Source: a virus
Lineage: Duplodnaviria > Caudoviricetes
Length of the DNA: 64,000 nucleotides
Virus record (IMG/VR): IMGVR_UViG_3300021255_004360
Location: 3,350-67,349 of that record
Direction: 5' to 3' (one strand)
Below the pieces are notes generated by a model. That model searched no databases and was not told the origin of the DNA. It worked only from the letters and a program-made list of their open reading frames with translations. The position numbers were made by a program, and so were the translations under genes. Position 1 is the stretch's first letter. Every line of letters begins with the position of its first letter. Of the stretch, positions 1,248 to 59,785 are shown piece by piece.

Positions 1248-1258
1248 GTTTAATTCAT

Positions 1259-2089: not shown

Positions 2090-2102
2090 AAAAAGAAATA
2101 TT

Positions 2103-2626: not shown

Positions 2627-2640
2627 TAAAAAGATTATAT

Positions 2641-3138: not shown

Positions 3139-3140
3139 CA

Positions 3141-4966: not shown

Positions 4967-4977
4967 AACTATTTATA
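4967..4977 (+). promoter_or_regulatory. Putative phage late promoter AACTATTTATA
   Basis: Intergenic, 18 nt upstream of the first baseplate gene. The same 11-mer recurs at 27248, 36718, 59791 and 61600. Confidence 0.65.
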
Positions 4978-4995
4978 AAAAAATAGTTTATTAAC

Positions 4996-36717: not shown

Positions 36718-36728
36718 AACTATTTATA
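36718..36728 (+). promoter_or_regulatory. Putative phage late promoter AACTATTTATA
   Basis: Exact motif, 16 nt upstream of ATG 36745. Confidence 0.6.
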
Positions 36729-36744
36729 AGAAAATAAGAAGGAT

Positions 36745-40400: not shown

Positions 40401-42198
40401 CCCTACGATATCTGGTACAACAACAGTTGCTGGCCCTACGGTTTGTGGTACTACAGCCGTATATGGTGCAACAATTTACGAAGGCGGTACGTCATTAGGT
40501 GACAAGTATCAACTAAAAGGTAGTTTTGCTAACGTTAATGGTGATACTGGAGAAACATTCAGCGCAAGTACGTTCTATGAGGGTGATAGTTCATTAAGTG
40601 ATAAGTATGCTGCATTGCATGGAAATACAGGTAACACGTTCAGTGGTTCAACTTTCTATGGTGCATTTAACGGTAATTTAAATGGAACTACCGCAACGTT
40701 AAGTGGTGCAATCAAGGGTGGCTCAGTTAGTGCTGCTACAATTACTGGTGCAACTGCTGTATATGGCGCAACAATTTACGAGGGTGGTACTGCTTTGAAT
40801 CAAAAATACCAAGAAAAAGGTAATTATGCTGATTTACACGGAAATACAGCCAACACATTTAGTGGTTCAACATTGTATGGTAATATTCAAGGTGGCACAG
40901 TTAGAGGCACAAATATTAGTGCTGCAACTATTACTGGCGCAACCCACGTAAGTGGTGCTACTATTATCGGTACAACGGTCAAAGGTAGCACTGTAAGTGC
41001 AGCAACCGTAACTGGAGCAACTATTGTTAAAGCCCCTACGGTATCTGGTACAACGACTGTTGCTGGTCCTACGGTTTGCGGTACTACAGCCGTATATGGC
41101 GCGACAATCTATGAAGGTGGAACTGCTTTAAGTGAGAAATATCAGGAGGCTGGTGATTATGCTGAATTGCATGGTAACACAGGTGTCACGTTCAGTGGCT
41201 CAACATTGTATGGTAATATCCAGGGTGGAACTGTTAAGGGTAGTTCTGTTAGTGCAACAACAATTACTGGCGCAACCCACGTAAGTGGTGCTACTATTAT
41301 CGGTACAACGGTCAAAGGTAGCACTGTAAGTGCAGCAACCGTAACTGGAGCAACAGAGGTTAAGGCTCCTACCATTAGCGGTACAACTAAGATTGGTGCG
41401 CCGAATATTACAGCAACAACAGGGTTATATGGCGCAACGATTTACGAAAACGGAACATCACTCGCATCAAAATATGCAGCATTACATGGTAGTGCAAGTA
41501 ATACTTTCACAGCATCAACTTTCTACGGAAATATTGCATGGGGTAATATAACAGGCAAACCAGCATCGTTTAGTGATTATGGTTTAAAGGTGCAAGGAGA
41601 TGGTAAATACACAAGCGCATCAACAAATGGTGCAAGTGCAATAACAGTAAGTGCAATCACAAAAGATGTTTCTGCTGCAACGTCAACTGCAACGGCATTG
41701 GCTGATGCTTACCAAACAAAAGCATATATCGAAAACTATGTTGCAAATGCTTTATCTTCATCCGTTTCCTACAAAGGAACAACGACAACGTATTCAGTTG
41801 CGGCCAAAGTTGGCGATATGTATATTGCAAGCAGTTCATTTACCATCCCTTCTGGTCAGTCAGCAAACGGTGCTGCTGTTACTGTTGAAAATGGTGACTA
41901 CATCATTTGTAGAACAAGTGGCACTACCACGACAAGTAAATGGGATGTTGTACAAAAGAACTTAACTAACGCAGTCACATATTCACAGTCAATGACGAAT
42001 GGACAGGTTGTCATTGCAAGTGGTACTGGTACTATTAAATCACAATCATTAGCTTCAACAACAGTTGGTAATTCTGATAAAGTTGATGGCTACCATGTGG
42101 CTGTTGTTACATCAACATCAGCAATGACAGATGCCAATACCATTTATATCTTAAGGGGAACAGCAACTGACCCAGAATCACAGTTGTCACAAATTTAA
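37426..42198 (+). CDS. Long repeat-rich tail fibre-like protein (1590 aa)
   Basis: N-terminal KGEIAVNT...PSLFIK fibre-anchor-like motif; about 1200 aa of shuffled short repeats; distinct C-terminal domain. No TGA; ends TAA. Confidence 0.7.
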   Translation: MAMKVIHKHSGGYSNKTAQAPEASSITKGEIAVNTSNVDPSLFIKKQDNTLAQFSAIKRSEIEGIQSNITSLDERLEELDASKLGTGDTAAAANKLAAAKTIIISGSVTGSASTDFSSSVTITTTTNHSHSEYAPKNGSISNNFSANTLTANKVSASTITGATAVYGATIYEGGTALNEKYAAKGNYANVHGNSANTFSASTFYEGNSSLSDKYAALHGDTANTFSGSTLYGNLQGGTVRGTNVSASTITGTSAVYTQTLSASTVAKAPTVCGTTAVYGATIYEAGQALNLRYQEKGDYANLHGNSANTFSGSTFYEGNKSLSDKYQPKGNYANVNGDINQPFSASSLDVKNSVTTSSLTTNDATVQDLTVTNSAEFKDLTATTSIHSATIYEGGTALSEKYAAKGNYANVNGDTSKPFSASTFYGNLQGGTVKGTSVSATTITGATHVSGGTIIGTTVKGSTVSAATVTGATSVQAPTVSASTLVKAPTVCGTTAVYGATIYEGGTALSEKYAAKGNYADLHGNSANTFSASTFYEGDKSLSQKYQPKGDYAALHGNTSNTFSGSTFYGNLQGGTVRGTNVSASTITGATAVYGATLYQGGSPLNDLYQAKGNYANVHGNSANTFSASTLYEGSSSLSSKYAALHGNTGNTFSGSTLYGNLQGGTVRGTDVSAATITGATSVVAPNITGSTAVYGATIYEGGTALSEKYAAKGNYANVNGDTGKTFSASTFYGNMQGGTIKGSSVSATTITGATHVSGGTIIGTTVKGSTVSAATVTGATSVQAPTVSASTLVKAPTVCGTTAVYGATLYEGGTALNQKYQPKGDYAKVNGDINTAFSASTLYEGDSSLSDKYQPKGDYAALHGDTANTFSGSTLYGNIQGGTVRGTNVSASTITGATAVYGATLYEGGTALNQKYQTKGDYAALHGNTANTFSGSTLYGNLQGGTVRGTNVSASTITGATAVYGGTIIGTTVKGSTVSAATVTGATIVKAPTISGTTTVAGPTVCGTTAVYGATIYEGGTSLGDKYQLKGSFANVNGDTGETFSASTFYEGDSSLSDKYAALHGNTGNTFSGSTFYGAFNGNLNGTTATLSGAIKGGSVSAATITGATAVYGATIYEGGTALNQKYQEKGNYADLHGNTANTFSGSTLYGNIQGGTVRGTNISAATITGATHVSGATIIGTTVKGSTVSAATVTGATIVKAPTVSGTTTVAGPTVCGTTAVYGATIYEGGTALSEKYQEAGDYAELHGNTGVTFSGSTLYGNIQGGTVKGSSVSATTITGATHVSGATIIGTTVKGSTVSAATVTGATEVKAPTISGTTKIGAPNITATTGLYGATIYENGTSLASKYAALHGSASNTFTASTFYGNIAWGNITGKPASFSDYGLKVQGDGKYTSASTNGASAITVSAITKDVSAATSTATALADAYQTKAYIENYVANALSSSVSYKGTTTTYSVAAKVGDMYIASSSFTIPSGQSANGAAVTVENGDYIICRTSGTTTTSKWDVVQKNLTNAVTYSQSMTNGQVVIASGTGTIKSQSLASTTVGNSDKVDGYHVAVVTSTSAMTDANTIYILRGTATDPESQLSQI
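37880..41530 (+). repeat. Coding mosaic of short tandem peptide repeats
   Basis: Recurring units GATAVYGATIYEGGTAL.EKY, KG.YA.(V/L)HG..ANTFS.ST(F/L)Y and GGTV(R/K)GT.VSA.TITG. Exact 65-nt DNA repeat at 38857-38921 and 39781-39845. Boundaries approximate. Confidence 0.9.
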
Positions 42199-42256
42199 TA
42201 ATTGGAATAGATTAGGAGAGGTAATAGGTGAGTAGTAAACAGATTAATTTTTAGTT

Positions 42257-42290
42257 AAAAACCCAGTGCGAAACCTGGGTTTTTTCTTTA
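42257..42290 (+). terminator. Intrinsic terminator
   Basis: AAAAACCCAG-TGCGAAAC-CTGGGTTTTT hairpin plus U-tract. Confidence 0.8.
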
Positions 42291-42319
42291 TTAAAAGAGG
42301 TAATAAACTATATTAATGT

Positions 42320-42329
42320 AGTATTTATT
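42320..42329 (+). promoter_or_regulatory. Late-promoter motif variant AGTATTTATT
   Basis: 18 nt before ATG 42348, just after a terminator. Confidence 0.5.
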
Positions 42330-42347
42330 AAAAAATAGTCTATAAAT

Positions 42348-45300
42348 ATGTCAAAGAAGGATGTTATTGAAACCAACAAACTCTATGTGGGTACTGGTGG
42401 CACGATTGATGGTCTGTACATCGGTTCCCCAACAGATGAATCAAGATATGCTGTTTTAACAGATGATAACGCACAAAAGACAGTTATTTACGACAAAGTA
42501 GAATATGAATTTGTTGTTGATGATATTGCAAACACAGTACCAGCAAACGGTGGTACGTATAATGTAACCGCAAGTATATCAAAGAAAACACATGGTGATG
42601 GAACGGTTGAAAGTCCGCTTCCATTTTCACCTACTTCTTTCACTATACCAGCAAATACAGGTGCATCGTATTCAAGTTCTGTAACAATTACCCAATCTGG
42701 TAGTGCTTTGATTGATGTTTGTGATTTTACAGTTGAAGCAGATTACGTTACAAGTTTGTCTTTGACACTCAACGCACCAGCCGTAATTCCTGCGTCTGGT
42801 GGTAGTGTAAACAGTACAACTTATACATTGGTAGCAAACTATAAAAGTGGTAGGGTTGTTAGTAACGTCAGTACCGCTACATTAGAATGAACTGGTGTAA
42901 CTGCTGGCTCAAAAGGAACAACAATTAGTAACCAAACTGATGCTGGTACTTTGAGAGCGCAAGCCACATTTGGTGGCAAAACAACAACGGCTACAGTAAC
43001 CGTAAAACAACAAGCCAACTATGTGACAGCTGTTGTTGCGTCTGGTAGTAGTTCTACAACACACTTTAGGTATGCTAACATTGGTCCTGCTGCCACATCT
43101 GCAAACATAACTGGACAAGGTGGTGGCGAATATACCTTCACGAGTGGTTCAAAATTGAATGATTCTTCTTCATCACCTTCATTTGGTGGTACAGCAACTT
43201 ATACAAGAAACGGATTTACGCTTGCATCCTCACAAAACGGATTTACGGCTGTTAATGCAACCTCAGGTAAATTAACTGCCACATCACTTGGAACAACAAT
43301 CAGTAATGCAAGAACTTCCGCTAATGTGTCTGGTAAATTGACTATTACGTACACTCACGCATCTGCATATAGTGCTGGTGGCACGGTAACAAGTCCTGCT
43401 TTTACATCAACAGCCACATGTACACAAACAGGTAACTATGTAACAGCAATAACAGTTTCAACAAGCCCAGCTGTTTCTTATAGTGAGTTCCATGCCAGTG
43501 GTGGAACAAAAAATGATGCTGGTACAGATGGTGTAATAACATATAAGTTTACAACAGCACAGGAAACAACAACAGCCCCTGCTGGCGGTACATTAACAAC
43601 CACACCTTCATATGCTATGACAAATGGTGGAGGTTTCTATTTGACAAACACAACCGCTGGTACTGTTAGTGCAGATACAAGAGGCACTACAAGTGGTGCT
43701 ACAAGAACCTCTAACACAATCACAAAAACAGTCAACTATTCTTTCGCACACTCATCAACATACAGTGCTGGGGGAACAAAAACCGCAAGCGCAACTGCAA
43801 CTGGAACAGCGACACAAGGTGAAAATGTTAGAACAAGCACCAACTATTCAGCTAATACATATACAGGCAGTGTGACAATTGGAAGTGGTTTACATGCTTC
43901 TGGTGGTAGTGCAACCGTAACATACAACGCTTGGCACACAGCATATGACCTATATACTTCAGGCGCATATAACAATAGCCACACAGTTTATGACCCTTGT
44001 AAGGTCACGATTACAACAAACGGAAACTCAAGGTTTAGTGGAAGTGGAACAAAGAGTACGGCAAGTTCTACGAACTCGACTTTTACATTGTCACACTCAA
44101 CTATGGGTACTACTGCAACTACGGACAATGTTACGGTAACTCTTTATAATACAACATATAGTTCAACAAGCGGTGTCAAGACTGCAAGTACGTCAGTAAC
44201 AAATGCAATCACAAATACCAATTACTCTGCCAACACATACACTGGTAGCGTTACAATTGGCAGTGGTTTACATGCTTCTGGTGGTAGTGCAACTGTAACC
44301 TACAATGCATGGCATAGTGCTTATGATTTATATACGTCTGGTGAATATAACAACAGCCATACAGTGTATGACCCTTGTAAGGTTACAATTACAACAAATG
44401 GTAACTCAAGATTTAGTGGTAGTGGTACAAAATCTACAGCAAGTTCAACAAATTCAACATTTACGCTAAGTCACACAACAATGGGTAGTGCTGTGACAAC
44501 GGATAATGTTACACTTACACTCTATAATACAACGTATAGTTCAACAAGTGGAGTTAAAACTGCAAGTTCATCAGTAACTAATACTTTAACGTACAAATAT
44601 CCTGCCATTACGAGCATTTCATATCCAGCACACGATGCAACAAGTGGTACTGTAACGCCTACAATTAAAGGTAGTTGTTATCCTACATACACTTCAACTG
44701 TTACTGGCGCACAAGTAACTAATATAACATTAACGGTTACAAGCGCATCAATGACTGCTGGAAATGGCGCAACAATTAACACATCTACTGGTGTTATCAC
44801 ATGGGCAGCAAATACAACAACAAGCCTTGACAGCCCAGCACCAGCCAGAACATCTAATACAGCAACACTAAACGTAAGTTTTGGCTCAACATATAGCAAC
44901 TTAACCGCAAGCGGTACTGCAACGGCAACACAAAATGCAGATGCAATATCAAGTACAGTTATTTCAAATCTTTCCGCTAATACCTATACTGCTTCAACAT
45001 CACCAGCACCTGCTGGACAGAGCACATTTACTTTAAGTGGTGGTAAGGCTACCGTTACTTATGTTTCTGGTGCTAAATTCTATCCTACTGCAACGTTGTC
45101 ATCATCATATCGTACTAGTTCAAGTTCTAGAAAAGTTACATTCAGTTCAACTAATATGACGAGCGCAACAACAAGCGTAACATGCACAGTCCCAAGTTTG
45201 ACTTATTCACATATAGCAGCAGGTTCCTATACCGTAACTTCAACATATGGTGGCGTTTCAAAAACTATTACAATATATCAAGCAGCAAATGGTGTGACTG

Positions 45301-48300
45301 GTATAACAGCGAATAACACAATATCTTACGCTCAAATACCAGCATCAGGTGGTACGGTTAATCCTACTGTATCAACAGCATACACGTTGCATTATGCTTC
45401 AACATATACAACACAGGGTTCGTCAGTTACAACATATGGTACAGTAAGTTCAACCACAAGTTATGCTATGACTGCTGGAAATGGCTTTTCATTGAAGTCA
45501 ACTTCAACGGGTCAGGTAAGTGCAACAACAAAAGGTACAACCGTTACTGGTGCTACAACTTCAAACACTGTGACAATGACAGTAAATTATACTTGGACAC
45601 CAGCAACATCTTATACATTTGGTTTTACAGAACAAACATGTACTGGTACTAAAACAACTAATGTAACACAAGCAGCAAACGCTGTCACGGCAACAGAATA
45701 CTCAACACCAACGATTACAAGCCCTACTGCTGGAGCATCAATTGGTACAATTCCTGCTGCTGGAGGTACGGTTACGCCTACAAAGACTGCAAGCCAGACG
45801 ATTACATATACATTTACATCTACCGCTACAAGTTCAAAGACAAATTCAACATTCACATGGACATCAGTGTTGACAAATGGTAACGGCTTCTACTTAACAA
45901 ATGCAACCAATGGTACAATTAGTGCGGCAACAAAAGGTACAACCGTTACGGGTGCTACAACGTCAAATACAGCCACATTATACGCATGGGCTAACGGAAA
46001 AACAGGTTCAACTACATATAAAGCAGTACAAGCAAAGAATGAAATAACTGGTTATACTGCTTATGAAACACCTTATGGCGGTACTTTCAGTGCAAGTTTA
46101 ATACCTGCAAGTGGTGGTACTTCAAATGTTACGTCAAATACAAGCTCTGTTAAACAAAAAAGAAAGGCTGTGTATAGTTCAACAGCAACCGCTGCAACCG
46201 CAACAGAATTCACACCAACATCAATTACAACTGGTGTTACAGGTAATGGTTCCGTTGCAAGCAAAGGTACAACCGTCTCAAACGAAACAACCGCAAAAAC
46301 ATTGACATGTTGGTATGCTGCAAATGGTGTTACTGCTTCATCAACGGTTTATGCATTACAACAAGCAAACTACGTAACTGTTGTACAGGCTTCAGGTACA
46401 ACCTCTGACTCACATTCACACTTCTCTTATGCTAATATTGCAGCAAAAACCACTACGGCCACCCCTACTTTGGCTGGAACCGCAGTATATACTTTCACAA
46501 GTGGTTCAAAACAGACAAGTAATTCAACAACGCCATTTGGTGGTACTGCGACATACACGAGAAGTAATTACACGCTTGCTGCTTCACAAAACGGATTTAC
46601 GGCAGTAAACGCTTCTACTGGTGTATTAACCGCTACTGCTCGTGGTACTACAATTGGTAATGCCAGAACATCAGCGAATGTAAGCGGTGACTTAGTAGTA
46701 ACATACACACACGGTGCTTCATACAGCAATGGTGGTACTGTGACAAGTTCAGCATATACCTCAACCGCTACTTGTACACAAACAGGTAACTATGTGACTG
46801 CTATTACTTTGACAACAAATCCTGCTGTTACCTATGCTGCTATTCCAGCAAGTGGTGGAAGTGCAACAGATAGCGGTTCGAATGGGGTTTTAAGATATAC
46901 ATTCACGTCAGGTAGTTATACTGCAACTAAACCTTCAACAACATATGGAGCCTTAACTTCTGCTGCAACATACACAATGGAAAGTGGAAATGGTTTCTCT
47001 TTGACAAATGCAACAAATGGTACGGTAAGTGCAACAACGAAAGGCACAACGGTCTCTAATGTTACTTCATCTGAAACCGTTACAAAATCTATTACTTACA
47101 CTTGGACACCTACCACATCATATAATGCTGCTGGAACGATAACAAAAACAAGTAGTGCTACTGGAAAAGCAACACAAGCAGCGAATAATGTTGCTAGTTA
47201 TGTCGGTTACACAACACCAAGTGGTTACACATTCAGTGGAACACAAGTACCAGCGGCTGGTGGTACTTCAACAATTACATCAACTGGTACTTTGTCACAA
47301 AAGGCTTATCCAGTATATAATTCAACAGCAACTGGTTCATCGTTAGTGAACGTTACTGGCACAGTTACAACGGGTGTTACTGGAAATGGTGCAATTGCAT
47401 CAAAAGGTACAACTGTTTCAAATGTAACAACAAACGCAAAAACCGTTACTTGTTGGTACGCAGCAAATGGTGTTACTGCAACATCATCTCTCAATATTTC
47501 ACAAGCAGCAAACTATGTTGTTACAGTTCAGGCTTCAGGTACAACCTCTGGCTCACATTCACACTTCTCTTATGCTAATATTGCAGCCAAAGCAACATCG
47601 GCCAGCCCTACTTTGGCTGGAACCGCAGTATATACTTTCAGCAGTGGTTCAAAAGAGACAAGTAATTCAACAACACCATTTGGTGGTACAGCAACATATA
47701 CAAGAAGTAATTATACACTTGCATCCTCACAAAACGGATTTACAGCCGTAAATTCAAGCAATGGTACGCTTACTGCAACTGCTCGTGGTACGACAATTGG
47801 TAATGCTAGAACATCAGCGAATGTAAGTTGTGATTTGGTTGTTTCCTATACACATGGTTCAAGTTATAGTGCTGGTGGTACTGTGACAAGTTCTGCGTAC
47901 ACTTCAACCGCAACCTGTACACAAGAAGGAAACTATGTAACTGCAATAACGGTTTCAACAAATCCTGCTGTTACCTATGCTGCTATTCCAGCAAGTGGTG
48001 GCAGTGCAACTGATAGTGGTACTAATGGTGCTGTAACTTATACATTTAGCAGTACAAGTACGTCAACAAGCGCTCCAGCATCAACATATGGCTCTTTATC
48101 CATAACCAAAACTTATTCAATGACGAATGGTAATGGTTTTACATTGAAGGATGCAAGTACTGGCCAGGTAAGTGCAACAACAAAGGGTACTACTGTAACT
48201 GGCGCAACTAATTCGAACACGATTACAAAAGCAGTTACTTACACATGGACACCTACTACATCATACAATGCTGCTGGAACAAAAACAGCAACAAAGAATG

Positions 48301-51300
48301 CAACTGGTACTGCATCACAATCAGCTAATGCTGTAACAAGTACAACGTGGGGTAATGTAACAATTACTTCACCTACTGGTGCTTCCCTTGGTGAAATTCC
48401 AGCAGGTGGTGGTAGCAAGACACCAACTAAAACCGCAACACAAAGTGGTACAAATCACTACACATCTGGTGCAGAATCCACAACCTCCAATAACTCCTTT
48501 ACTTGGTCCGTTGCTTTTACAAACTCTGGTAATTACACGTTAAAGAGTTCAACAACAGGCGAAATTAGTGCAAGTACAAGAGGAACAACGACTGGCAATG
48601 CAACAACTTCCAACACAGCAACAATAACTTGTACTGGTGCTGGAAGCAAAACCGCTACCGCAACCTATTATGTAACACAACAGGCAAATGCTGTAACAAG
48701 TACAACATGGGGTAATGTAACAATCACCTCACCTACTGGCGCATCGCTTGGTGAAATTCCAGCAGGTGGTGGTAGTAAAACACCTACAAAGACAGCAACA
48801 CAAAGCGGAACAAATCATTATACATCTGGTGCAGAAGCTACAACATCAAACAACTCATTCACCTGGTCTGTTGCATTTACAAACTCTGGTAACTACACAC
48901 TGAAGAGTTCAAGTACTGGTGAGATTAGCGCAAGTACAAGAGGTACAACAAGTGGTGCAACAACAACATCTAATACCGCTACAATAACTTGCACAGGTGC
49001 TGGAAGTAAGACAGCAACCGCAACTTATTACGTAACACAACAAGCAAATAATTATACGGATACTTGGAACAATCCTGTGATTTCCTCACCAACCGCAGGT
49101 GCTTCACTTGGTGAAATCGCAGCGAGTGGCGGTAGCAAGACACCTACGCTTACAGCCACACAAAGTGGCACGAGAACGTGGACTTCAACATCAACGTCTG
49201 CAATTACGAATACGAACTTTACATGGGTTGTTACATTTACAAACTCTGGAAACTATACGTTAAAGAGTTCAACTACTGGCCAAATCAGCGCTTCCACAAG
49301 AGGTACTACAAGTGGTGCTACAACGACTTCAAATACAGCAACTGCCAAATGTACTGGTAGCGGTAGTAAATCAGCATCTACAACCTACTATGTAACACAA
49401 GCAGCAAATACTTACACGGATTCTTGGAACAATCCTGTGATTACATCACCAAATGGTGCTTCAATTGGTGAAATCCCAGCAGGTGGTGGTAGCAAGACAC
49501 CTACACTCACAGCCACACAAAGTGGTACGAGAACATACGCATCAACTGCAACGTCGGCGATTACCAATACGAACTTTACATGGTCTGTTGCATTCACAGC
49601 TTCTGGTAATTTCACATTGAAAAGCGCAACTACTGGACAAATCAGCGCCGCAACAAAAAGCACAAATGTTTCTAACACAACAACCTCAAATACTGCCACC
49701 GCAACATGTACTGGCTCTGGAAGTAAGACAGCAACTGCGACCTATTATGTAACACAGCAGGCTAACTATATCGTGACTGTTACACCGAAAGCCACCGCTT
49801 CTGGAAATGGAAAACACTTCTTTTATAACAATATTGCTGCATCTGCAACAAGCGCAGCTGTTACAAAGTCTGGTAGTTGTGATTTGACATATACAAGTGG
49901 TGCAGTAAACTCAAGTGTTGGTTCATATGCTACAAGTTCATATACTAGAACTTACACACTTGCAGCATCACAAAACGGTTTCACAAAAGTTAACGCATCT
50001 ACTGGTGCATTAACAGCTACGGCACGTGGTACGACAATCGGCAATGCTAGAACCTCTGCAAACGTAACAAGCGTTCTAACCGTTACTATCACACATAATA
50101 GCACGTATAGCGCTGGTGGTACGGTTACAGGTTCAATGACTTCTGTCACTACCTGTACACAAGAAGGAAACTATGTTACTGGCTTAACAGTTGTAACAGC
50201 CCCTAGTGTTGGATATCCTCTTATTCCAGCCTCTGGTGGTACTGTATCAGAAACTGGCAATAACGGTACAGTAAGATTCGCCTATAGTAGTAATAGCACT
50301 GGTACAACAATACCAAGTTCAACATATGGTACTTTGACTACACCTAAAACATATGCCATGACTAATGGTAATGGTTTCTCTTTGACAAATGCAACAAATG
50401 GTACGGTAAGTGCAACAACGAGAGGAGCAACTACGGGTACAAGTCGCACCTCATCTTCAATCACAAAGACTGTTACCTATACTTGAACACCTACCACATC
50501 ATACAATGCTGCTGGAACAAAAACTGTTACAGGAACAGGTACTGGTACTGCTACACAACAAGCAAATGCTTACACAGATATATGGAATTATCCATCCTTG
50601 AGCCTCGTAAATGTCAAACTTGGCTCAACACTTGCTGCTGGTGGTGGTAGCGCAACATTATCAATTAGTACCGTGAAGAGTAATTTTACACAAACTGGCA
50701 GAAGAAGATATACATCTGGTTCTGAAGAAAATATTAGTAATAGTGGAAGTGGAAGTGATGTTTCTGTAAGAGGTACAATGGATAATGGTAATGGTTTTGT
50801 ATTATTAACATCTGATACAATTACAGTTAGTGCAGTTACGAAGGGCACAACAGTAACTGGTCAAACAACTTCAAACACAATCACAATTATTGCTGTTGGT
50901 AAAGATAACAAGGCTTGCACAGGCTCTTGTTATTCTGTACAGGCTGCTAATGCTGTAACAAATACCGCGTATGGTGACATCACTGTGTCACAACCATCAA
51001 GTGGTAGTTCGATTGGCGAAATTCCTGCATCTGGTGGTACTATAACGCCTTCAATAAAGGCTGCAAGTCAGACTATTACATATACATTTACATCTACTGC
51101 CACAAGTTCAAAGACGAATTCAACGTTTACTTGAACGGCTACGATGACAAATGAGCGTGGTTTCTATCTAACGAATGCCACCAATGGTACTGTTAGCGCT
51201 GTAACAAAAGGTACAACTATAACTGGCGTAACCACTTCAAATACTGTTACATACAAAGCTGTTAATGGTGGTAAAACTGGTACAACAACATATTATGTAA

Positions 51301-53600
51301 CACAACAAGCAAATGCAGTTGTTGGATACTTTGATTACCAAGCACCATCTGGTGTTACGTTTGCTGCTGCAACAGTTCCAGCATCTGGTGGAAAACCAGT
51401 TATTACACCAGATACATCAAATGCAACAACAAAAGCAAAAGCAATTTATACAAGTAAAGCATCAGGAACATCATATACAACATTAAATAACGTTACTGGT
51501 ATCACAACAGGTACTACGACAGCATTGCCAACCGTTGCAAGTAAAGGACTTGTATATACCAGTGCCGTGACAAATAACGTTGCACAAGTAACATGTTGGT
51601 ATGCTGCTGGTGGAAAAACTGGTGCGACTGTAAACGTGAAAGTCAAACAAGCAAGAAACCGTATTGCCAGTGCTAGACTTGAACAAACTGATAGCACTAA
51701 GCCATTGTATTATTTTACAGGCGATGTTCCAGCAAAAGGAAGTCATTATGTTTTACCAGGTGTTTCTAATTCACATGTTGTATATGTAATGGATAGTGGT
51801 GCGGAAGGTACAAAATCACAAATATTGAGCGTTTCGCCTACTCCATATGAATGAACGGAAACAGTAAAATATTATAGTGGTTCTGGGGAATATGATACAT
51901 ATAGTGGACCAGACTATGAAACAACTTATGGTAATGACAAGGGTACAGCCATCTCCAATCGTACACTGTTGGCTACTGTGTGGCAAAAAACTTCTTCTTT
52001 GATAAGGTATAACACTTATTCCGATGTGGTATTCAATAATTCGGGTTCACCGCTTGTGGCTGAGGCTGCTGTCTATCAAGAGGGTAATTATGTCACTGCG
52101 TTTACATGCAGTAGTGGTAGTATTAGCGTAAGTTTTCGCGGTTCAGGAACTTCGTATCGTTTTCGTGCATCAGGAGAGACGAAAGGTGACTATTATTCTG
52201 GGAATAGCCCTTATTTTAGTTTCACAAGATTTTACTTCACCAGTGGTGATTGAACATACACACAACCTTCAGCAACATATGGTATAATGCAAACAGCAGT
52301 AACATATACAATGGAAAATGGTAACGGTTTCACATTTAACCCTAATACAAAACTTTTAACAGCAGAATCAAAAGGTACAGTTGTATCGGATATCACGTCT
52401 TCAAATACTATAACTAAGTCTGCCGTTGCTACGTGAATACCGACTGCAAACTATACTCCAGCCAACATGCCAAATGGTGGACTAATCAGTTCTACCGCAA
52501 GTTCTGTTACAACTCAAGCAACGCAAGAAGCAAATGCAGCAACTTCAACTAGTGGTCGTACACTCTACGCATCTGGTATTTCTGGCTATAATTATTCGAT
52601 GACAGTAAGTTCTGATACTGGTACTACGGTAGCTAAGGCCATGCCATCTGCACAAACTGGAAGCTTTAGAATTAGTTTCACTGGCCAATGTTCAACAAAA
52701 AAATGAACACAATACCAGAAGTGAACTAAGTACACGTCAACCGCTACTGGTTATACGATACAGCCAATAGAATATTCTAGTACTACAAATACGGTAAAAG
52801 ATAGTTATGTGGCGTTACCTACAACAATTGTGACAACTGGAAACACAGCCGTTGAATCGCCAGTACATGGTACTACATCGTGAACAAGACCATATTATAG
52901 GTGTAAGAAAAATCCTACAACATCAGTAAGAACGCATGCTTTTGTTGGTTATATATTGGACCCATCTGATAGTGGTATTACCGCATATACACATCCACAG
53001 TTGTTAATTTACCAAAAGGCTGGTACTGGAACTACGAGTTGTTCACCACAATGTACATCAAATGCTTCAAGCGCAACATATTCTGGTGGCCCTTGTACTT
53101 GTAACTCAGTTGCTTGTATACAATGTACATCTGACTATTATGGGCCATGTGGCAGTCAATGTACGTGTCATGCTGTAAATTGTCAAACACAATGTGATTG
53201 TAATGGTGTTGCTTGTAGTCAATGTCTGTCAAAGGCTGCTTGTACTTGTGATAGTGAATCTTGTAGTCAATGTACTTGCAACACAGAATCTTGCGCTGGA
53301 TATTGTACTTGTGATGCTGTAACGGATACCAGTTGTACATGCAACACCGTTGGTTGTGCACAATGTACTTGTGATACTGTTGCTTGTGTACAATGTACTT
53401 GCGATGGACAAACTTGTGCTGTGTGTACGGCTGATGGCGGGTGCAAACCATATTGCTCTTGCGATACCGTATGTACTGAGACTTGGAAGAGCACTTATTG
53501 TAACGCACATCAGACACATGGATGTAACATGTACAACTGTAGTGTGTATGATGGGACAGGAACTTGTTCTTGCAACTCCGTATGCCCAACTAATAATTAA
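42348..53600 (+). CDS. Giant Thr/Ser-rich fibre-like protein with a C-terminal Cys-rich domain (3750 aa; 9 TGA)
   Basis: TGA at 42888, 50484, 51132, 51852, 52251, 52434, 52704, 52722 and 52881, all in the frame of ATG 42348; I read the gaps and found no TAA/TAG before 53598. About 120-aa modules with IPA.GG, (K/R)GTT and TQ.AN. Confidence 0.85.
43839..44590 (+). repeat. Tandem duplication of a 126-aa module
   Basis: Copies start at 43839 and 44217 (TNYSANTYTGSVTIGSGLHASGG...); about 8 amino-acid differences by manual count. Confidence 0.9.
48324..49760 (+). repeat. Four tandem modules of about 120 aa
   Basis: AN.....W.N..I.SP.GAS.GEI.A.GGSKTPT.TATQSGT...CTG.GSK.A..TYYVTQ units starting at about 48324, 48684, 49044 and 49401. 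Confidence 0.9.
53040..53600 (+). other. Cys-rich CxC-repeat domain forming the C-terminus of the giant fibre
   Basis: 42 Cys in 186 aa and 11 CxC motifs. Shares CAGYCTC, QCTSD, TCAVC and CNSV with the next gene. Confidence 0.85.
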
Positions 53601-53626
53601 ATTATAAACATATAACATAAAAAGAA

Positions 53627-54478
53627 ATGGCAAAAATTATAGATGAATACGACATCAATGATGGTATTTTGTTAGGTGCGGATGGCTGTTGTGAGGGTAT
53701 TGATATGTGCGATAAATGTGCAGACGATACATGTCTTGATTGTGACACTGATTGTTCTTGTGATAGTCAATGTACACATTGTCAGGGTGAGGGGTGCGAC
53801 TGTAATGACCCAACTGGCCCAATGGGTGAATGTGACCGTGACAATAGCTGCGCTTGTGATGGATATTGTGCTTGTGATGTTTATTGCTCAAAATGTACAG
53901 TACACACAATATGTGACTGTGATGGCGGTGTTTGCAGTTGCGATTCTGTTTGTTCTCCACAAAACGCAACCACATCTGGATATTGTACTTGTAATGGCCA
54001 ATGTACATGCAATGCAGTTTCATGCGCTCAATGTGCCTGTAATGCACAAAGCTGTACAGCACAATGTACTTGTGACGCTGTTTCGTGCACGGCTTTCTGT
54101 GATTGCGATGCTGTTTCATGTGCTGGATATTGTACATGTAATGCTAAAAGTTGTGGCCCAAAATGTACGTGTGATAGTGTTAGTTGCAGCAAATGTACAA
54201 ATCATGGTGCATGTTCCTGTGATACTGACCCTTGTCCACATTGTTTGTGTAATATTCACGTTTGTGCACAATGTACTGCAACTGAATGTACTTCACAAGC
54301 CATATGTGATTGTAACTCTGTTGGTTGTGTACAATGTACTAGTGACGGTGCATGTCCAAGCGTATGTCCAACACAGGTTATGTGTATGTGTCACGAGCAA
54401 GATACTTGCACGTGTGATGTACAATGTACTTGCCACGCTAAAACATGTGCTGTGTGTAACTGTAATGCAGAAGAATAG
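53627..54478 (+). CDS. Cys-rich repeat protein, putative radical-SAM substrate (RiPP-precursor-like; 283 aa)
   Basis: 68 Cys and 20 CxC motifs after a 20-aa Cys-free acidic N-terminus (MAKIIDEYDINDGILLGADG). A-rich start context; ends TAG; adjacent to the rSAM/SPASM gene. ORF is secure; function is inferred. Confidence 0.75.
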   Translation: MAKIIDEYDINDGILLGADGCCEGIDMCDKCADDTCLDCDTDCSCDSQCTHCQGEGCDCNDPTGPMGECDRDNSCACDGYCACDVYCSKCTVHTICDCDGGVCSCDSVCSPQNATTSGYCTCNGQCTCNAVSCAQCACNAQSCTAQCTCDAVSCTAFCDCDAVSCAGYCTCNAKSCGPKCTCDSVSCSKCTNHGACSCDTDPCPHCLCNIHVCAQCTATECTSQAICDCNSVGCVQCTSDGACPSVCPTQVMCMCHEQDTCTCDVQCTCHAKTCAVCNCNAEE

Positions 54479-54526
54479 TACTTTACTTTCAAATAATTTT
54501 GTTTTATATTATATAAAAAATAGAAT

Positions 54527-56113
54527 ATGGATGTATTTTCACAACCAGTTGGATATGCTATTAATTTTTTAGGTGGCCAACAGAAAAGAGACGATAGTGT
54601 AAAGTATCGTAGATTAAAATATTTAGTAGATGTTGATTTAGAAGATAACAGAAAAGCAATCTACAATTTGTTAACCAGTTGTGGTGTTGTTTTGAATCAA
54701 GACGAGTTGAAACAGATAGAGGATTTTAAGAAAGACTCAATTTGTGTTAACTATTTGATTGAGAATTATTTCTTCGTACCAGAGGATTATGACGAGAAGG
54801 CTGAGGTAGATAAATACAGAGAAGAATCTGTTATCAAAAAGAAAACATTCTTGGTCACACCAACTGAGTTTACTATTTTACCAACTACGGATTGTAATGC
54901 CAGATGCTTTTATTGTTTTGAGAGGGGCAAAAAAATAACCGTCATGACAATGGATATGGCAAATAAAGTTGCTGATTATATTATAGATTGTTGGAATAAA
55001 ACCAAAGAGACGATTGTTCTAAGATGGTTTGGTGGCGAACCACTATACAACATGAAAGCAATTGATGTCATTTGTAAGCGGTTAACAGAGAATGGTGTTG
55101 ATTTCAAATCAAGTATCATATCCAATGGTTATCTGTTTAGTGAGGATGTAGCAATAAAGGCTGTCAACGATTGGAAAATGACACACGCACAAATAACGTT
55201 GGATGGTACAAAAGATGTTTACAATAAAACAAAGAGTTACATTTATGATGATGAGAATCCGTTTGAGGTTATTATGCGTAACATGGAATCCATGTTGAAA
55301 GCTGGTTTCGGTATAAGCATCAGAATGAATGTTGGTACACATAACGGTGATGATTTGAAAGAGTTGGTATCATATCTTAATGAAAGGTTCAAGAATGATA
55401 TGAATCGAAAATTCTCTGTATATGCTCATCCAATATTTGAAACTGGTATGGATGATGAAACCAAGAGAACGCCAGAGGAACGTGCATTGGTTTATCAGAA
55501 ACTGGAAGAATTGGAACAACACATGAAGAGTATTGGCATTTCATTAGGTATAGGAAGGTTAGGCGGTTTAAGAACAAGACACTGTATGGTGGATGGTGGA
55601 AAAGCCATACTTATTCTACCAGATGGAAAACTTGGACTATGTGAACATTATACCGATTCTGAATATTTTGGACAACTTGGAGACGATAGAGAATCCTGGG
55701 ATTGGGGAGAGATTAAATCCTTGGTAGAACAGACAGATATGTTACCAGAATGTGGTGATTGTGTTCTTTATCCTACCTGTTATAGATTGAAGAAATGCTT
55801 GGATGAAATTTTCTGTGACAAGTATGTTGTTGATTGGACAATGAGGCGTACAATAGAGAATATCAAAGCAAAAATAAACTCATTCTATAAGAATGCGAAT
55901 AACAATTGTTCTTGTGGGAACAACCAAACACCAAGATATGATTTATATGCTGGCAAGATAGAGTTCAACAACCTTATTTCTTTTGTTATGCTCCAAGAAG
56001 CAAAAATCAAAAGAATTAGTGAGAAATTAGGCATTGATTTTAGCGATTTAGACACGGAATATAATGAAAAACAAAAGAATGTTCCGAAACAAGGAACACA
56101 AAGTCAAGAATAA
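54527..56113 (+). CDS. Radical SAM enzyme with SPASM domain, peptide-maturase type (528 aa)
   Basis: CNARCFYC (CxxxCxxC), WFGGEPL, SNGY and QITLDG. SPASM CMVDGGKAILILPDGKLGLC (C-x13-G-x4-C) then CGDCVLYPTCYRLKKC...C. About 110-aa N-terminal extension (IYNLLT...YLIENYFFVPEDYDE) sits where RRE domains usually occur. Confidence 0.92.
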   Translation: MDVFSQPVGYAINFLGGQQKRDDSVKYRRLKYLVDVDLEDNRKAIYNLLTSCGVVLNQDELKQIEDFKKDSICVNYLIENYFFVPEDYDEKAEVDKYREESVIKKKTFLVTPTEFTILPTTDCNARCFYCFERGKKITVMTMDMANKVADYIIDCWNKTKETIVLRWFGGEPLYNMKAIDVICKRLTENGVDFKSSIISNGYLFSEDVAIKAVNDWKMTHAQITLDGTKDVYNKTKSYIYDDENPFEVIMRNMESMLKAGFGISIRMNVGTHNGDDLKELVSYLNERFKNDMNRKFSVYAHPIFETGMDDETKRTPEERALVYQKLEELEQHMKSIGISLGIGRLGGLRTRHCMVDGGKAILILPDGKLGLCEHYTDSEYFGQLGDDRESWDWGEIKSLVEQTDMLPECGDCVLYPTCYRLKKCLDEIFCDKYVVDWTMRRTIENIKAKINSFYKNANNNCSCGNNQTPRYDLYAGKIEFNNLISFVMLQEAKIKRISEKLGIDFSDLDTEYNEKQKNVPKQGTQSQE

Positions 56114-56135
56114 ATTAGTTTACTGTACATTAAAT

Positions 56136-56165
56136 GGGAGTGAAGAAATTCGCTCCCTTTTTTTG
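56136..56165 (+). terminator. Intrinsic terminator closing the fibre/Cys-protein/rSAM unit
   Basis: GGGAGTGAA-GAAA-TTCGCTCCC hairpin followed by a long T run. Confidence 0.85.
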
Positions 56166-56200
56166 TTTTTATAGAAAAAATCACTATTTTTAAACATAAA

Positions 56201-56632
56201 ATGGAAGGAAAAAAACATAGCATATCTATAGGAGAAAATCTTTATAAGGATTTGAAAGAATATTGTGAACTTAATTCGTTGAAAATGAATGAGTTTGTAG
56301 AATCTTTGTTGAAAGATGCGTTTATGGTTGAGAAATATGGTGATGCACCGTTCTTTACAAAACCAAACATTAGTGAGTCAGAAGTAAAACGGGAAACAAT
56401 TGTTGCTGTTCCACTTAAATCGGATGTTGTTGACAGCAACGGTAGAATATATACGGAACAAGCAATTTCGGAAGCCCTTAAAAACTTTAAACAAGAAACA
56501 CAAATTACAGTTAACGAAAACACAGGGGAAGTGTTTTTAGACACAAACCATACATCAGTACAAGAGGTGACGATTCCAGAGAAACAAGTTACAGAAAACA
56601 AACCAAAAAGGAAAGTAACCAAATTAAAATAA
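56201..56632 (+). CDS. Hypothetical protein with a possible ribbon-helix-helix N-terminus (143 aa)
   Basis: KKHSISIGENLYKDLKEYC...MNEFVESLL fits a beta-alpha-alpha pattern. Confidence 0.5.
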   Translation: MEGKKHSISIGENLYKDLKEYCELNSLKMNEFVESLLKDAFMVEKYGDAPFFTKPNISESEVKRETIVAVPLKSDVVDSNGRIYTEQAISEALKNFKQETQITVNENTGEVFLDTNHTSVQEVTIPEKQVTENKPKRKVTKLK

Positions 56633-56635
56633 AAT

Positions 56636-59044
56636 ATGGCTAAAAAACAGCAAATAGTAATAGGAAAAAATGCTCAGGTACGTATTCAATGGAACGTATC
56701 TTCGGTAGATTACACCGATGAAAAGAAAGATGCGATAAGGGAATTATTCGCCAAAAAATACAATTTACCAGTTTCCAAGGTGAAAGTGGAGCCTAATTTT
56801 ATGACTGGTATTTGTGGTGAGGAAATATCACTTAACAAGGACACCATACAGAACATCAATGACCCGAAATTCCATCAGCAATTATATGTGCAGTATTTGG
56901 AAGATAAGAAAGCAAAGGGTGAGATTGAGGATTATGATTTGGATGAAATTTTAAAAATTGACAGCCAGATTAATACCCTTATTGATTTCAGTACTTATGA
57001 TAAAGGTAGGAGATATACTTTAAAGTGGCTTGATTGGGATAATTTTTTGGCTTTCGGTGAGGGCAACCATGTTGATTTCACGGACTTTAAAGGCTTGATT
57101 TTACTGAACAGTATTCCAGACAATCAAGGTGGTAAATCAACATTTGCTTATGACATATTACATTTCCTTTTCTTTGGTAGAACCAATTCTGGTAAGATGA
57201 AAGTGCTTGATAGGGCATTTAATCGTCATCTTCCAGAGGCTAGAAAATGTAAGGTAGAGGGGTGTATAGAAATTGATGGACTTAACTATATTATTAGGAG
57301 AACATTAACACGTAGTGCTTATAACGGTAAGAACGCTACAAGGACGGTAACGCAAAAGGTAGAGTACTTTAGAGTGCTTGATAATGGCGAGTTGGAAGAA
57401 TTGGAAGATATTGATAATCTCAATGAGCAAACCAGTGTAAAGACCACGCAAGCCATTAAGGAAGCAATCGGTAATGAAAGGGACTTCGACCTTGTTATTT
57501 CTGCTAATTCAGATAACTTGAAGGAACTTATTTCTCTTAAAGATACTGAGAGAGGCAGATTGTTAAGTCGCTGGATTGGTTTGCTCCCATTGGAAGATAA
57601 AGACATTAAAGCCCGTGAGAAATGGAATAAGGAAATCAATGTAAATCGTTATTGCACAAGATATAATAGTGAAGTCGTAAAACAGGAAATTGAAAACCTT
57701 ACTGCTCAGAACGAGGAAAACGAAAAACAAATCAAGAAATATGAGAAGATTGTTAGTGATTGTGAAGAAAAGATTAAGAAAGAAAATGTAACAAAAGATG
57801 CACTTCTTTCATCAAAGAAAACAATTGACAATAACTTGATGAAGGTTGATGTGCATACATTGGAAACGAGAATTGCTGACATCACACAACAAGGATTGAA
57901 AAAGACGGCAGAAAAAAAAGCACATGAGTCTGTTATTGAACAGATGAAAGATGTTAAAATTGTTGATGAAAACGTTTACGGTGAATTGAATAAGAAACAT
58001 CAGAAATGTGTTGAGTATATCGCTTCTTTGAAGTCTGATATTAAAAACTTGAGAGATACAAACAAAAAACTTACAGAAAGTGAATATTGTCCTACTTGTA
58101 AGAGAAAATTTGAAAATGTAGATAATAGTGCTATCGTTAAGCAAAACGAAAAACTTATATATGACAAGATTCAAGAAGGAATTATGATAAGTGAAGAAAA
58201 AAAGAATCTTGAAACAGAGTTAGCCAAACTTGATGAAGCCAGAAAACTTTATTATGAGAAGAACAAACATGAATTAGCTGTTTCGCAGTGCAATGTTGAA
58301 ATTGAGCGTCTTCGGAATGAACTTAAAGACTGTAACGCAACGAAGAAGGAGATAATAGCAAATAAGTCTGCTATTGAAGAAAACAACAAGATTGACAACG
58401 CCCTCAATATTGCAAACGCCAATATCAAAAATGAAGAAAACATTAGAACAAGCGCAAAAGAAACAATAGTTGCTTTTAAGAAAGATATTGAACGGAATAA
58501 CACAGCCATCACAGAACGACAGATTGTGATAACCAAGATAGAGGAAGAAACAAAAATCGAAAAGAACTGGAAGATATACCTTATGCTTGTTGGTAAAGAT
58601 GGCGTTGGTAAGATGGTACTTAGGCACACATTACCTATTATCAATAGCGAACTTCACAGAATTCTTGAAGATGTTTGCGATTTTGATGTTGAGGTTACTA
58701 TGAATGAGAAAAATGATGTCGATTTCATTTTAATCTGTAAAGATGATGGTGTAAGGCAAGAATTGTGTGCTGGTTCTGGTTTCGAGCAAACCGCAGCAGC
58801 ACTTGCATTGCGTGTTGTATTAGGCAACATGAGTGCTTTGTCAAAGCCTCCGTTCCTCGTCCTTGATGAAATTTTAGGTGGTGTTGCGAAGGTAAATTAT
58901 GATAATATGAGAAAACTTTACGAGAAAATTTCCCAATATTATAAATTTATAATGCAAATAACCCATTTAAGCGACATTGCTGATTGGCACGATAGAACCA
59001 TCACAATAGTCAAGAAGAATCATGTTTCCAGGGTTGAGTTGTAA
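56636..59044 (+). CDS. SbcC/Rad50/T4 gp46-like SMC-family recombination ATPase (802 aa)
   Basis: Walker A NQGGKST, coiled coils, zinc hook CPTC, signature-like GSGFEQ, Walker B LVLDEILG and H-loop ITHL. Confidence 0.9.
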   Translation: MAKKQQIVIGKNAQVRIQWNVSSVDYTDEKKDAIRELFAKKYNLPVSKVKVEPNFMTGICGEEISLNKDTIQNINDPKFHQQLYVQYLEDKKAKGEIEDYDLDEILKIDSQINTLIDFSTYDKGRRYTLKWLDWDNFLAFGEGNHVDFTDFKGLILLNSIPDNQGGKSTFAYDILHFLFFGRTNSGKMKVLDRAFNRHLPEARKCKVEGCIEIDGLNYIIRRTLTRSAYNGKNATRTVTQKVEYFRVLDNGELEELEDIDNLNEQTSVKTTQAIKEAIGNERDFDLVISANSDNLKELISLKDTERGRLLSRWIGLLPLEDKDIKAREKWNKEINVNRYCTRYNSEVVKQEIENLTAQNEENEKQIKKYEKIVSDCEEKIKKENVTKDALLSSKKTIDNNLMKVDVHTLETRIADITQQGLKKTAEKKAHESVIEQMKDVKIVDENVYGELNKKHQKCVEYIASLKSDIKNLRDTNKKLTESEYCPTCKRKFENVDNSAIVKQNEKLIYDKIQEGIMISEEKKNLETELAKLDEARKLYYEKNKHELAVSQCNVEIERLRNELKDCNATKKEIIANKSAIEENNKIDNALNIANANIKNEENIRTSAKETIVAFKKDIERNNTAITERQIVITKIEEETKIEKNWKIYLMLVGKDGVGKMVLRHTLPIINSELHRILEDVCDFDVEVTMNEKNDVDFILICKDDGVRQELCAGSGFEQTAAALALRVVLGNMSALSKPPFLVLDEILGGVAKVNYDNMRKLYEKISQYYKFIMQITHLSDIADWHDRTITIVKKNHVSRVEL

Positions 59045-59071
59045 AAATAAAAGAGGAAAGAATATGAAAAA

Positions 59072-59785
59072 ATGCCTATTAAAAAGAGAGTTGTGGTCGA
59101 TGATTATGATTCACAACAAAAAAGATATTTTGATGAAATTTCAAAAACAAAACCACTAACAAAAGAAGAAGAATTTTTACTTTGGAAAGATTATAAAGAG
59201 AACAAAAACATAGAAGCAAGAAACAAATTAGTAGAAGCAAACCTTAAGTTTGTAGCAACAATTGCCAACTCATATAGAGGACGTGGTTTATCATATTCTG
59301 ATTTAATCGCAGAAGGTAATATCGGGCTTATTAGAGCCGTAGATAAGTTTGAAGCCACGAGAGGATATAAGATGATAAGTTACTCTGTCTGGTGGATAAG
59401 ACAAGCGATATTGGAGGCCATAGAAAAAAGAAATAATATCAATGGCGATGAACTACCAAAAGATTATGAAGACCAAGTACCTGATGAAGATGAAAGCACG
59501 TATTTTAGTAAAGAAGAAACCCCTTCAAGATTCGTGGACGATGAAGATGATAAAACGGATAAAAAACAAGCAATTGCTGAGTTGTTAAATGTTTTGGATG
59601 ACCGCGAGGCTGAAATAATAACAAGATATTATGGATTACTTGAAGACCCAATAAACTTAGAGGACATTGGTAATGAGTTGAATTTAAGTAAAGAAAGGGT
59701 TAGACAAATAATGGAAAAGGGGCTAAAAAAAATGCGCAGTGCTTATATGGAACGACAAAGTTTTGTGAGGATAAACAGAAACTAA
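59072..59785 (+). CDS. Sigma-70 family RNA polymerase sigma factor (regions 1.2, 2 and 4; region 3 reduced)
   Basis: LTKEEE...[30 protein letters not shown]...[17 protein letters not shown] and [18 protein letters not shown]. Confidence 0.9.

Follow-up and report, generated by a model that had tools for sequence, protein, structure and literature searches.

Why should a bacteriophage of the ruminant gut carry, close behind the gene of what appears to be a giant tail fibre, a radical S-adenosylmethionine (SAM) enzyme of the kind that cross-links cysteines in peptides? The question is raised by the window analysed here, a stretch of 64,000 nucleotides (nt) from the IMG/VR virus record IMGVR_UViG_3300021255_004360, in which three genes follow each other on the plus strand (Table 1): one for a Ser/Thr-rich repeat protein of 3750 amino acids (aa) ending in a cysteine-rich (Cys-rich) domain, one for a free Cys-rich protein, and one for a radical SAM/SPASM enzyme. 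The answer that we favour is that the phage enzyme cross-links the Cys-rich domain at the fibre tip and its free paralogue by thioethers, the three genes being parts of a late tail-fibre operon; arguing by analogy with characterised enzymes, we give this reading a probability of about 0.6. The original prediction, made from the DNA alone, went in the same direction in that it saw the chemistry of RiPPs (peptides made by the ribosome and modified after translation) repurposed for the stapling of a fibre tip. This interpretation is supported by the results below; that the links are thioethers and that the stapled proteins are incorporated into the virion we infer.

The cysteine-rich tip of a probable fibre and its free paralogue

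The source record, a virus contig, comprises 67,349 bases and is estimated to be 19% complete; a near-identical relative is found on a contig of 384 kb. The genome is that of an approximately 384-kb ruminant-gut phage in which TGA is read as tryptophan; the stretch is present in bovine and sheep gut metagenomes from more than 10 studies. Its long genes are open only if TGA is translated as Trp (code 4), there being nine in-frame TGA codons in the fibre gene; another 13 long frames contain such codons as well. In a relative that was assembled independently (locus L035) and whose fibre is 91% identical, the TGA codons at W3459 and W3512 of the window are replaced by TGG and, in the reverse direction, TGA at W1014 of L035 is TGG here. 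Since the two Trp codons are exchanged in both directions, the read-through is real and the Cys-rich end is part of the giant protein, which bears out the predicted 3750-aa product with its 42-Cys end. In three more distant relatives (L001, L002, and L003) the fibre repeats continue into the Cys-rich end without any stop, even under code 11. A suppressor tRNA was not found in the 64-kb window.

The change of composition along the giant protein is abrupt: its body (36.6% Ser plus Thr) contains 24 Cys in 3555 residues, and its last 195 residues contain 42. Upstream of the gene lie a homologue of a baseplate wedge protein and a run of giant repeat proteins. In other loci of the family the surroundings point to fibres as well. 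Thus, the gene just ahead of the Cys-rich gene ends in a Peptidase_S74 tail-fibre chaperone in L120, L123, L045, L128, and L143, and BACON domains are found within the Cys-rich proteins of L008, L038, and L173. In fibre residues 2150–2230 (approximately; positions 48795–49040), three stretches match the CdtA/C domain of lectin type (PF03498, 30.7 bits). This match falls in Ser/Thr-rich repeats and is regarded as unreliable; it could represent either a beta-trefoil-like sugar-binding module or an artefact of composition.

The tip and the free protein are paralogues (BLASTP E = 7e-14, 36–37% identity), as had been predicted for the 68-Cys protein and the fibre end. Both genes contain DNA repeats of 30/33 nt with 60–78% identity, and both Cys-rich domains are built of units of 10–11 residues of the form C-x-C-[D/N]-x3-C-x2-3. 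The grammar of these units is strict: Asp, Asn, or His stands directly after CxC in all 31 motifs of the window, and in the clade of related loci described below Asp or Asn is found at this position in 69% of 520 motifs, as compared with a background of 16%. The motif C-[T/S]-C-[D/N] is conserved. In composition the domains resemble metallothioneins, with 23–24% Cys, many Asp, Asn, Ser, and Thr, and almost no aromatic residues. Read-through from the fibre gene into that of the free protein is ruled out, the two being in different frames and the genes being separate in all relatives.

Orthologues of the free protein lie directly upstream of the enzyme gene in L001, L002, L003, L118, and L035; 26 columns of their alignment are invariant, 24 of which are Cys. 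The N-terminus of the protein in the window is short and Cys-free. Neither of the two Cys-rich sequences has a match in Pfam, NCBIfam, or PHROG; the free protein has none among GenBank phages and no usable one in the protein atlas, and HMMER retrieved only two relatives of it, probably owing to composition filters. AlphaFold2 (AF2), given a five-row alignment, found no fold for the free protein (pLDDT, the score predicted for the local distance difference test, 32), and with so low a value the model allows no statement on a beta-helix or solenoid. Prediction of a complex between residues 1–460 of the enzyme and the first 120 residues of the free protein gave a score of 0.00, which speaks neither for nor against binding. 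A strain variant from bovine gut has an in-frame insertion of three nucleotides (GGT) at position 54346 of the free Cys-rich gene along with many substitutions, which is consistent with a coding sequence under selection.

The radical SAM/SPASM enzyme, its relatives, and its surroundings

The enzyme belongs to the radical SAM superfamily (PF04055, E = 4.8e-13, 50 bits at a cut-off of 29.5), and its cluster motif C123-x3-C127-x2-C130 is invariant in 29 homologues, as judged on their alignment (A1). Further downstream it carries the seven cysteines of the SPASM pattern (CX9-15GX4C, gap, CX2CX5CX3C, gap, C), the fourth spacing being x5 rather than x3, in a region that aligns structurally with the SPASM domains of the anaerobic sulfatase-maturing enzyme (anSME) and of CteB. 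The AF2 model of the enzyme has a mean pLDDT of 84.9. On structural alignment with VIA-align, CteB (model residues 30–451 on chain residues 1–448) and TigE (model residues 23–454), which are enzymes bearing a RiPP recognition element (RRE), both follow the model through its N-terminal domain, whereas anSME aligns only from model residue 111; the N-terminal domain can therefore be described as RRE-like. The maturase profiles of NCBIfam also match from residue 26–34 onwards. A full set of SPASM cysteines and an RRE-like N-terminus had both been predicted, and both are borne out. At the other end the enzyme has a helical extension of about 95 residues (55820–56110), with a low-confidence linker at aa 459–479, which is present in the closest relatives (521–528 aa) and absent from most others (450–490 aa).

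By sequence, the enzyme groups with SPASM maturases that modify peptides or proteins, a point on which the original prediction could have failed. Searched with the 29-sequence profile, the Protein Data Bank (PDB) yields CteB as the best match (3.5e-20) and also SkfB; anSME gives no match at E ≤ 0.01. Foldseek places CteB first (7e-15) and also lists SuiB, SkfB, and EpeE. In NCBIfam, TIGR04463 ranks first and is followed by the maturases of Clo7bot, CefB (Cys-every-fifth), FlmE/OhkG, geopeptide, PapB, CXXX-repeat, and CcpM type; several of these best families are defined by Cys-repeat substrates, and anSME families are not among the best 25 of 43 matches. The single enzyme sequence found nothing in the PDB and no close relative in IMG/VR, and among GenBank phages it found only distant matches (22–28% identity).

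How regularly is such an enzyme found beside a Cys-rich protein? The full module, consisting of a fibre with a Cys-rich end, a free Cys-rich protein, and the enzyme, is present in L001 (enzyme 58% identical to that of the window), L002 (56%), and L003 (41%); in L118 (70%), a short contig, only the Cys-rich protein is seen upstream of the enzyme. For a wider view, 182 enzyme homologues were gathered from IMG/VR, metagenomes, and genome bins, and each locus was translated in codes 11, 4, and 15 and scored for a stretch dense in Cys. In a FastTree phylogeny of all 182 the window falls in a well-supported clade of 22–23 rows, 16 of which have a strong Cys-rich neighbour, whereas the sister clade, whose 132 rows are for the most part bins of bacteria from the guts of ruminants and other animals, has one such neighbour (1/132), and that in a code-4 reading only. 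IQ-TREE with 60 rows gives a clade of 20 (support of 98 in the Shimodaira-Hasegawa-like approximate likelihood ratio test, SH-aLRT); 15 of its rows are strong cases, three have too short a flank, and one, L135, is a true exception. The clustering of the Cys-rich neighbour on the tree was matched in none of 500 shuffles. The pairing asked for by the original prediction is thus kept in L001, L002, and L003 and in 15 members of the 20-row clade.

Most members of this clade are recoded phages, in which TAG stands for Gln or TGA for Trp; their Cys-rich proteins comprise 290–1117 residues with up to 171 Cys, and one to three enzyme paralogues lie alongside. Two or three tandem enzyme paralogues beside one very large Cys-rich protein are seen in L008, L037, L038, L119–L123, and L173; in L173, for example, three enzymes surround a protein of 1117 aa with 147 Cys. 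In two TAG-recoded relatives, L008 (4010–4564) and L038 (477–1064), a gene for a small papain-like peptidase (PF00112, with a faint C39-like match) lies directly upstream of the BACON-Cys-rich gene; it could be a candidate processing protease, to which nothing in the window corresponds. The sister clade (L004–L007 and most of L036–L115) comprises bins of Clostridia, Oscillospiraceae, Prevotella, and Bacteroidales lacking a Cys-rich neighbour, and in loci of Ruminococcus type its enzyme follows a DUF1015 gene and a small membrane protein.

In a more distant viral clade of 10 contigs, a tail-tip protein (PF06605 Prophage_tail, phrog_1067/5555, or gp58-like) is encoded immediately ahead of nine of the enzymes, and the last 40–80 residues of these tail-tip proteins are rich in Cys, Asp, and Gly. 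The loci in question (L012, L014, L015, L016, L017, L020, L021, L024, and L026) are siphophage-like: the open reading frame of the tail-tip protein ends at about 6001 and the enzyme homologue comes immediately next; a conserved helix, W-D-[VI]-T-x-x-L-x-W-[LF]-D-x-R, precedes the Cys/Asp/Gly-rich tail. A search of IMG/VR with a degenerate DNA pattern for CxC[D/N]x3Cx2CxC[D/N] returned only unrelated low-complexity Cys sequences (CCCD runs, giant-virus contigs), near none of which was a member of the enzyme family, so that it is not a valid test for tips occurring without the enzyme.

The three genes are enclosed, as predicted, by terminator-like hairpins at 42257 and 56136, which are the top two sites in a scan of 41800–57000. 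The intergenic gaps are 26 and 48 nt, and there is no internal terminator. No gene for a peptidase or exporter is found inside the block, again in agreement with the prediction. The late-promoter-like motif claimed for its start is indeed a recurring one: the 17-nt sequence TATTTATWAAAAAATAG (4970–4986 and 42322–42338) ends 9–10 nt ahead of the start codons at 4996 and 42348, a third copy with two mismatches lies at 36721–36737 (the distance to the start codon being 8–10 nt over the copies), and there are 4 matches with at most two mismatches where 0.18 are expected. It is a putative promoter or initiation signal. None of the three genes is preceded by a Shine-Dalgarno-like sequence, the lack of which is usual for Bacteroidota and their phages. 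In RNA libraries of three ruminant studies there are contigs with short fragments of both the Cys-rich and the enzyme gene (approximately 99–100% identity); they are a weak hint of expression only and are not counted as proof of transcription, because coverage is patchy and carry-over of DNA is possible.

Table 1. Features of the three-gene block and of its boundaries (positions in the window)
Feature	Position	Strand	Remarks
Terminator-like hairpin plus T-run, 10 pairs	42257..42284	+	Second-best site of the scan; closes the preceding 1590-aa gene; upstream block boundary
17-nt A/T motif TATTTATTAAAAAATAG	42322..42338	+	Ends 10 nt ahead of the fibre ATG (42348); exact copy at 4970
Giant Ser/Thr-rich repeat protein, 3750 aa	42348..53600	+	Single frame under TGA = W only; probable tail fibre or adhesin
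Cys-rich C-terminal tip domain (aa 3556–3750)	53013..53597	+	42 Cys in the last 195 residues; 11 C-x-C-[D/N/H] units, 10–11-aa period
Free Cys-rich protein, 283 aa, 68 Cys (24%)	53627..54478	+	20 C-x-C-[D/N/H] units; may be a second substrate or a helper of the CrpB kind
Radical SAM/SPASM enzyme, 528 aa	54527..56113	+	RRE-like domain, radical SAM core, SPASM region, helical C-terminal extension (aa 432–528)
RRE-like N-terminal domain (aa 1–100)	54527..54826	+	Four strands, then three helices; AF2 pLDDT >90
SPASM cysteine region C353-x13-G367-x4-C372 ... C409-x2-C412-x5-C418-x5-C424-x5-C430	55583..55816	+	Seven Cys and G367 invariant in A1
Terminator-like hairpin, 9 pairs, 5 GC, T7 run	56136..56157	+	Best site of the scan; 22 nt past the enzyme stop codon; block end

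Directly past the block (56636–59785) follow two genes, the first for an 802-aa SbcC/Rad50-like protein (phrog_77) and the second for a 237-aa factor of the sigma-70 family with regions 2 and 4, an order also found in L002 and L035. The sole long gene on the minus strand (33834–34919) is that of a complete DnaJ homologue, in which the J, the CXXCXGXG zinc, and the C-terminal domains are all present; it is an unusual chaperone gene within a structural region. Homologues of glycosyltransferases (phrog_26101, phrog_2644) are encoded at 3–3962, upstream of the genes for baseplate and fibres; as the latter are very rich in Ser and Thr, their glycosylation is conceivable.

Proposed cross-linking and the alternatives

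The mechanism that we propose would start from a late tail-fibre operon providing a fibre with a distal 195-residue cysteine-repeat domain, a free paralogue, and a dedicated RRE-radical SAM-SPASM enzyme, which would bind the Cys-rich domains in the anoxic cytoplasm of the host. SAM would be cleaved at the radical SAM [4Fe-4S] cluster and the side chain of an acceptor would lose a hydrogen. As C-x-C-[D/N] can also be read as C-x-x-[D/N], this acceptor would most likely be the Asp or Asn three residues past the donor Cys; the sulfur of the first Cys of the motif would be joined to the acceptor carbon. The expected product is a ladder of small thioether (ranthionine-type) rings such as CrpC forms on CrpA (see below), and the fibre tip, possibly together with an associated subunit, would be held by redox-independent covalent links where disulfides are unavailable.

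Several points weigh against this reading. The chemistry is an analogy, and the CxC repeats could have an alternative function in the binding of metal ions. No characterised family includes the enzyme, all NCBIfam matches being far below the curated cut-offs: the best model, TIGR04463 (E = 3.6e-40, residues 34–418), scores 138 bits at a cut-off of 525, so that the enzyme is to be regarded as a relative and not a member of that family, and the PapB model (NF047865, E = 6.4e-22) scores 78 bits at a cut-off of 340 and covers residues 115–418 only. The Pfam model for SPASM, PF13186, gave no match at E ≤ 0.1, the models matched being only PF04055 and Fer4_12 in a search whose HMMER filters discard weak matches, and the SPASM call rests on cysteine pattern and structure. 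Likewise, the giant protein as a whole matches no fibre family in Pfam or PHROG, for which reason its assignment as a fibre rests on context. There is no N-terminal leader on the fused tip, and among relatives the free proteins show poor conservation of their leader-like N-termini, so that a classical leader is doubtful. As for the neighbourhood, L135 and L161 (the latter just outside the 20-row clade) have no Cys-rich neighbour within 5 kb, and bacterial enzymes of about 39% identity adjoin DUF1015 with no visible substrate. Finally, the core fold of anSME ties with that of CteB (Z 22.6 vs 22.0).

The last point bears on the alternative that survives best, namely that the enzyme does modify the Cys-rich domains, by another radical SAM/SPASM chemistry: sactionine formation (S to C-alpha), C-C or C-O cross-links, epimerisation, or an anSME-like oxidation of Cys. 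SPASM enzymes catalyse many reactions, and an enzyme whose core matches anSME and CteB equally well, which remains below the cut-off of every characterised family and for which Foldseek also lists SuiB, SkfB, and EpeE, might carry out any of these. However, the closest families are defined by Cys-rich substrates, and their characterised members (CrpC, PapB, and CteB) form Cys thioethers; moreover, the sulfatase target motif C/S-x-P/A-x-R is absent from both the fibre tip and the free protein, and the conserved Asp/Asn at +3 fits the C-x-x-acceptor of CrpA. Another chemistry is in our view unlikely.

Ranking next is the possibility that the CxC repeats form a metal-binding needle and that the enzyme acts elsewhere or on the free protein only. 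The tip of the long tail fibre of phage T4, with its His-x-His iron sites, is comparable in principle. The metallothionein-like composition and the lack of an autonomous fold in AF2 would fit such a needle, and metals have been suggested to be involved in the function of CrpA (Dieter et al., 2026; PMC13692751). It leaves unexplained, however, why the enzyme and the Cys-rich proteins are adjacent in recoded and non-recoded phages and not in the bacterial sister clade, and why the enzyme occurs in one to three paralogues that scale with Cys-rich proteins of very large size. We give it a low probability, bearing in mind that metal binding and cross-linking do not exclude each other.

It is distinctly improbable that the free protein serves as precursor for a RiPP-like product which diffuses away as an antibacterial or host-manipulating factor and has no place in the virion, the fibre-fused copy being an evolutionary by-product. 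A short Cys-free N-terminus, the papain-like gene upstream in L008 and L038, and an RRE-like domain, which is typical of leader-dependent maturases, would be in keeping with it. However, the operon has no peptidase or exporter, and products of 150–1100 aa are not peptides; the recurrent fusion to fibre or BACON domains, the position past fibre genes with an S74 chaperone, and the retention of the fused tip in L001, L002, and L003 all speak against it. That the adjacency is fortuitous and the enzyme an auxiliary metabolic gene that has nothing to do with the Cys-rich proteins is hardly credible: there are related bacterial enzymes without a Cys-rich neighbour, but the clustering was unmatched in the shuffles and the pairing persists in 15 members of the 20-row clade in spite of only about 40% enzyme identity and different genetic codes.

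Cross-linking of fibre tip and paralogue by thioethers thus remains the reading that we prefer. Its generalisation is more tentative, and we would put it at somewhat less than even odds: phages of anoxic gut habitats would staple their host-binding fibre tips by enzyme-installed thioethers, the paralogue would be a second stapled subunit or a CrpB-like helper, and the C-[T/S]-C-[D/N] ladder would be a new cross-linked fold. In the literature we found no report of a virion protein modified by a radical SAM enzyme, which agrees with the original statement that none matured in this way has been described. Covalent stabilisation of virions is known in a few cases, such as the isopeptide chainmail of the HK97 capsid. 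If the proposal is true, the structure of a virus particle would be modified post-translationally by radical SAM chemistry of the RiPP type, which would then reach from small peptides and one archaeal protein to the viral receptor-binding apparatus. It would also give a reason for cysteine ladders in phages of reducing, protease-rich habitats, where disulfides cannot hold, and would mean that there are many proteins of recoded gut phages whose mass and antigenic or binding surface are unpredictable from sequence alone. With three genes and a defined motif the system is directly testable.

Comparison with known systems

A classical RiPP cluster, with a short leader-bearing precursor peptide, is not what is encoded in the block: the candidate substrates are a 283-aa protein and one domain of a protein of 3750 aa, with neither peptidase nor transporter. 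With anSME (PDB 4K36–4K39) the phage enzyme shares the core fold of radical SAM and SPASM domains (Z 22.1–22.6 over residues 111–453), and anSME likewise acts on a Cys of a full-length protein; it differs, however, in being without the N-terminal RRE-like domain and in having a target motif that does not occur in the phage Cys-rich sequences.

The likeness to CteB, the thioether-forming maturase of the SCIFF peptide thermocellin (PDB 5WGG/5WHY), extends from the RRE-like domain through the SPASM domain (Z 22.0, 371–390 residues). The identity is only 14–16%, though, the phage enzyme has the additional helical C-terminal extension, and the substrate of CteB is a SCIFF peptide of about 45 aa with a leader as against a 283-aa protein and a domain of a giant one. 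In the systems PapB/PapA (freyrasin) and NxxcB/NxxcA, repeated short motifs of Cys and Asp or Asn are cross-linked into small thioether rings. The motifs are C-x3-D and N-x-x-C there and C-x-x-[D/N] in the phage, and with PapB there is no match over a long N-terminal domain, the profile starting at residue 115. CteB, PapB, and NxxcB had been named in the original prediction as SPASM enzymes that form Cys thioether cross-links; CteB and PapB are indeed among the best matches, but the closest precedent, CrpC/CrpA, had been missed.

CrpC from Methanococcus voltae, the sole characterised member of TIGR04463, binds three [4Fe-4S] clusters and forms thioethers, most probably of the ranthionine type, at the C-x-x-acceptor motifs in CrpA, which is a Cys-repeat protein of 28.8 kDa, as evidenced by mass spectrometry, alkylation, and desulfurisation; the gene cluster encodes a second, paralogous protein, CrpB, and phages are not mentioned (Dieter et al., 2026; PMC13692751). 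The parallels to the phage block are several. In both, an RRE-radical SAM-SPASM enzyme with seven SPASM cysteines adjoins a Cys-rich repeat protein rather than a peptide, together with a paralogue: the 68-Cys gene of the phage ends 48 nt upstream of the enzyme gene and is itself preceded by the 42-Cys tip. The motifs of CrpA are of the C-x-x-D/Q type, and its core cluster is also without protease or exporter. The differences lie in the repeat, which has 17 aa in CrpA and 10–11 aa in the phage (C-[T/S]-C-[D/N]-x3-C), in the fusion of one phage substrate copy to a 3750-aa fibre, and in the host, a recoded phage of gut bacteria instead of a methanogen. The comparison suggests that the known part of the system is the thioether maturation of Cys-rich repeat proteins by radical SAM/SPASM enzymes, and that what is new is its biological setting, the fibre of a phage.

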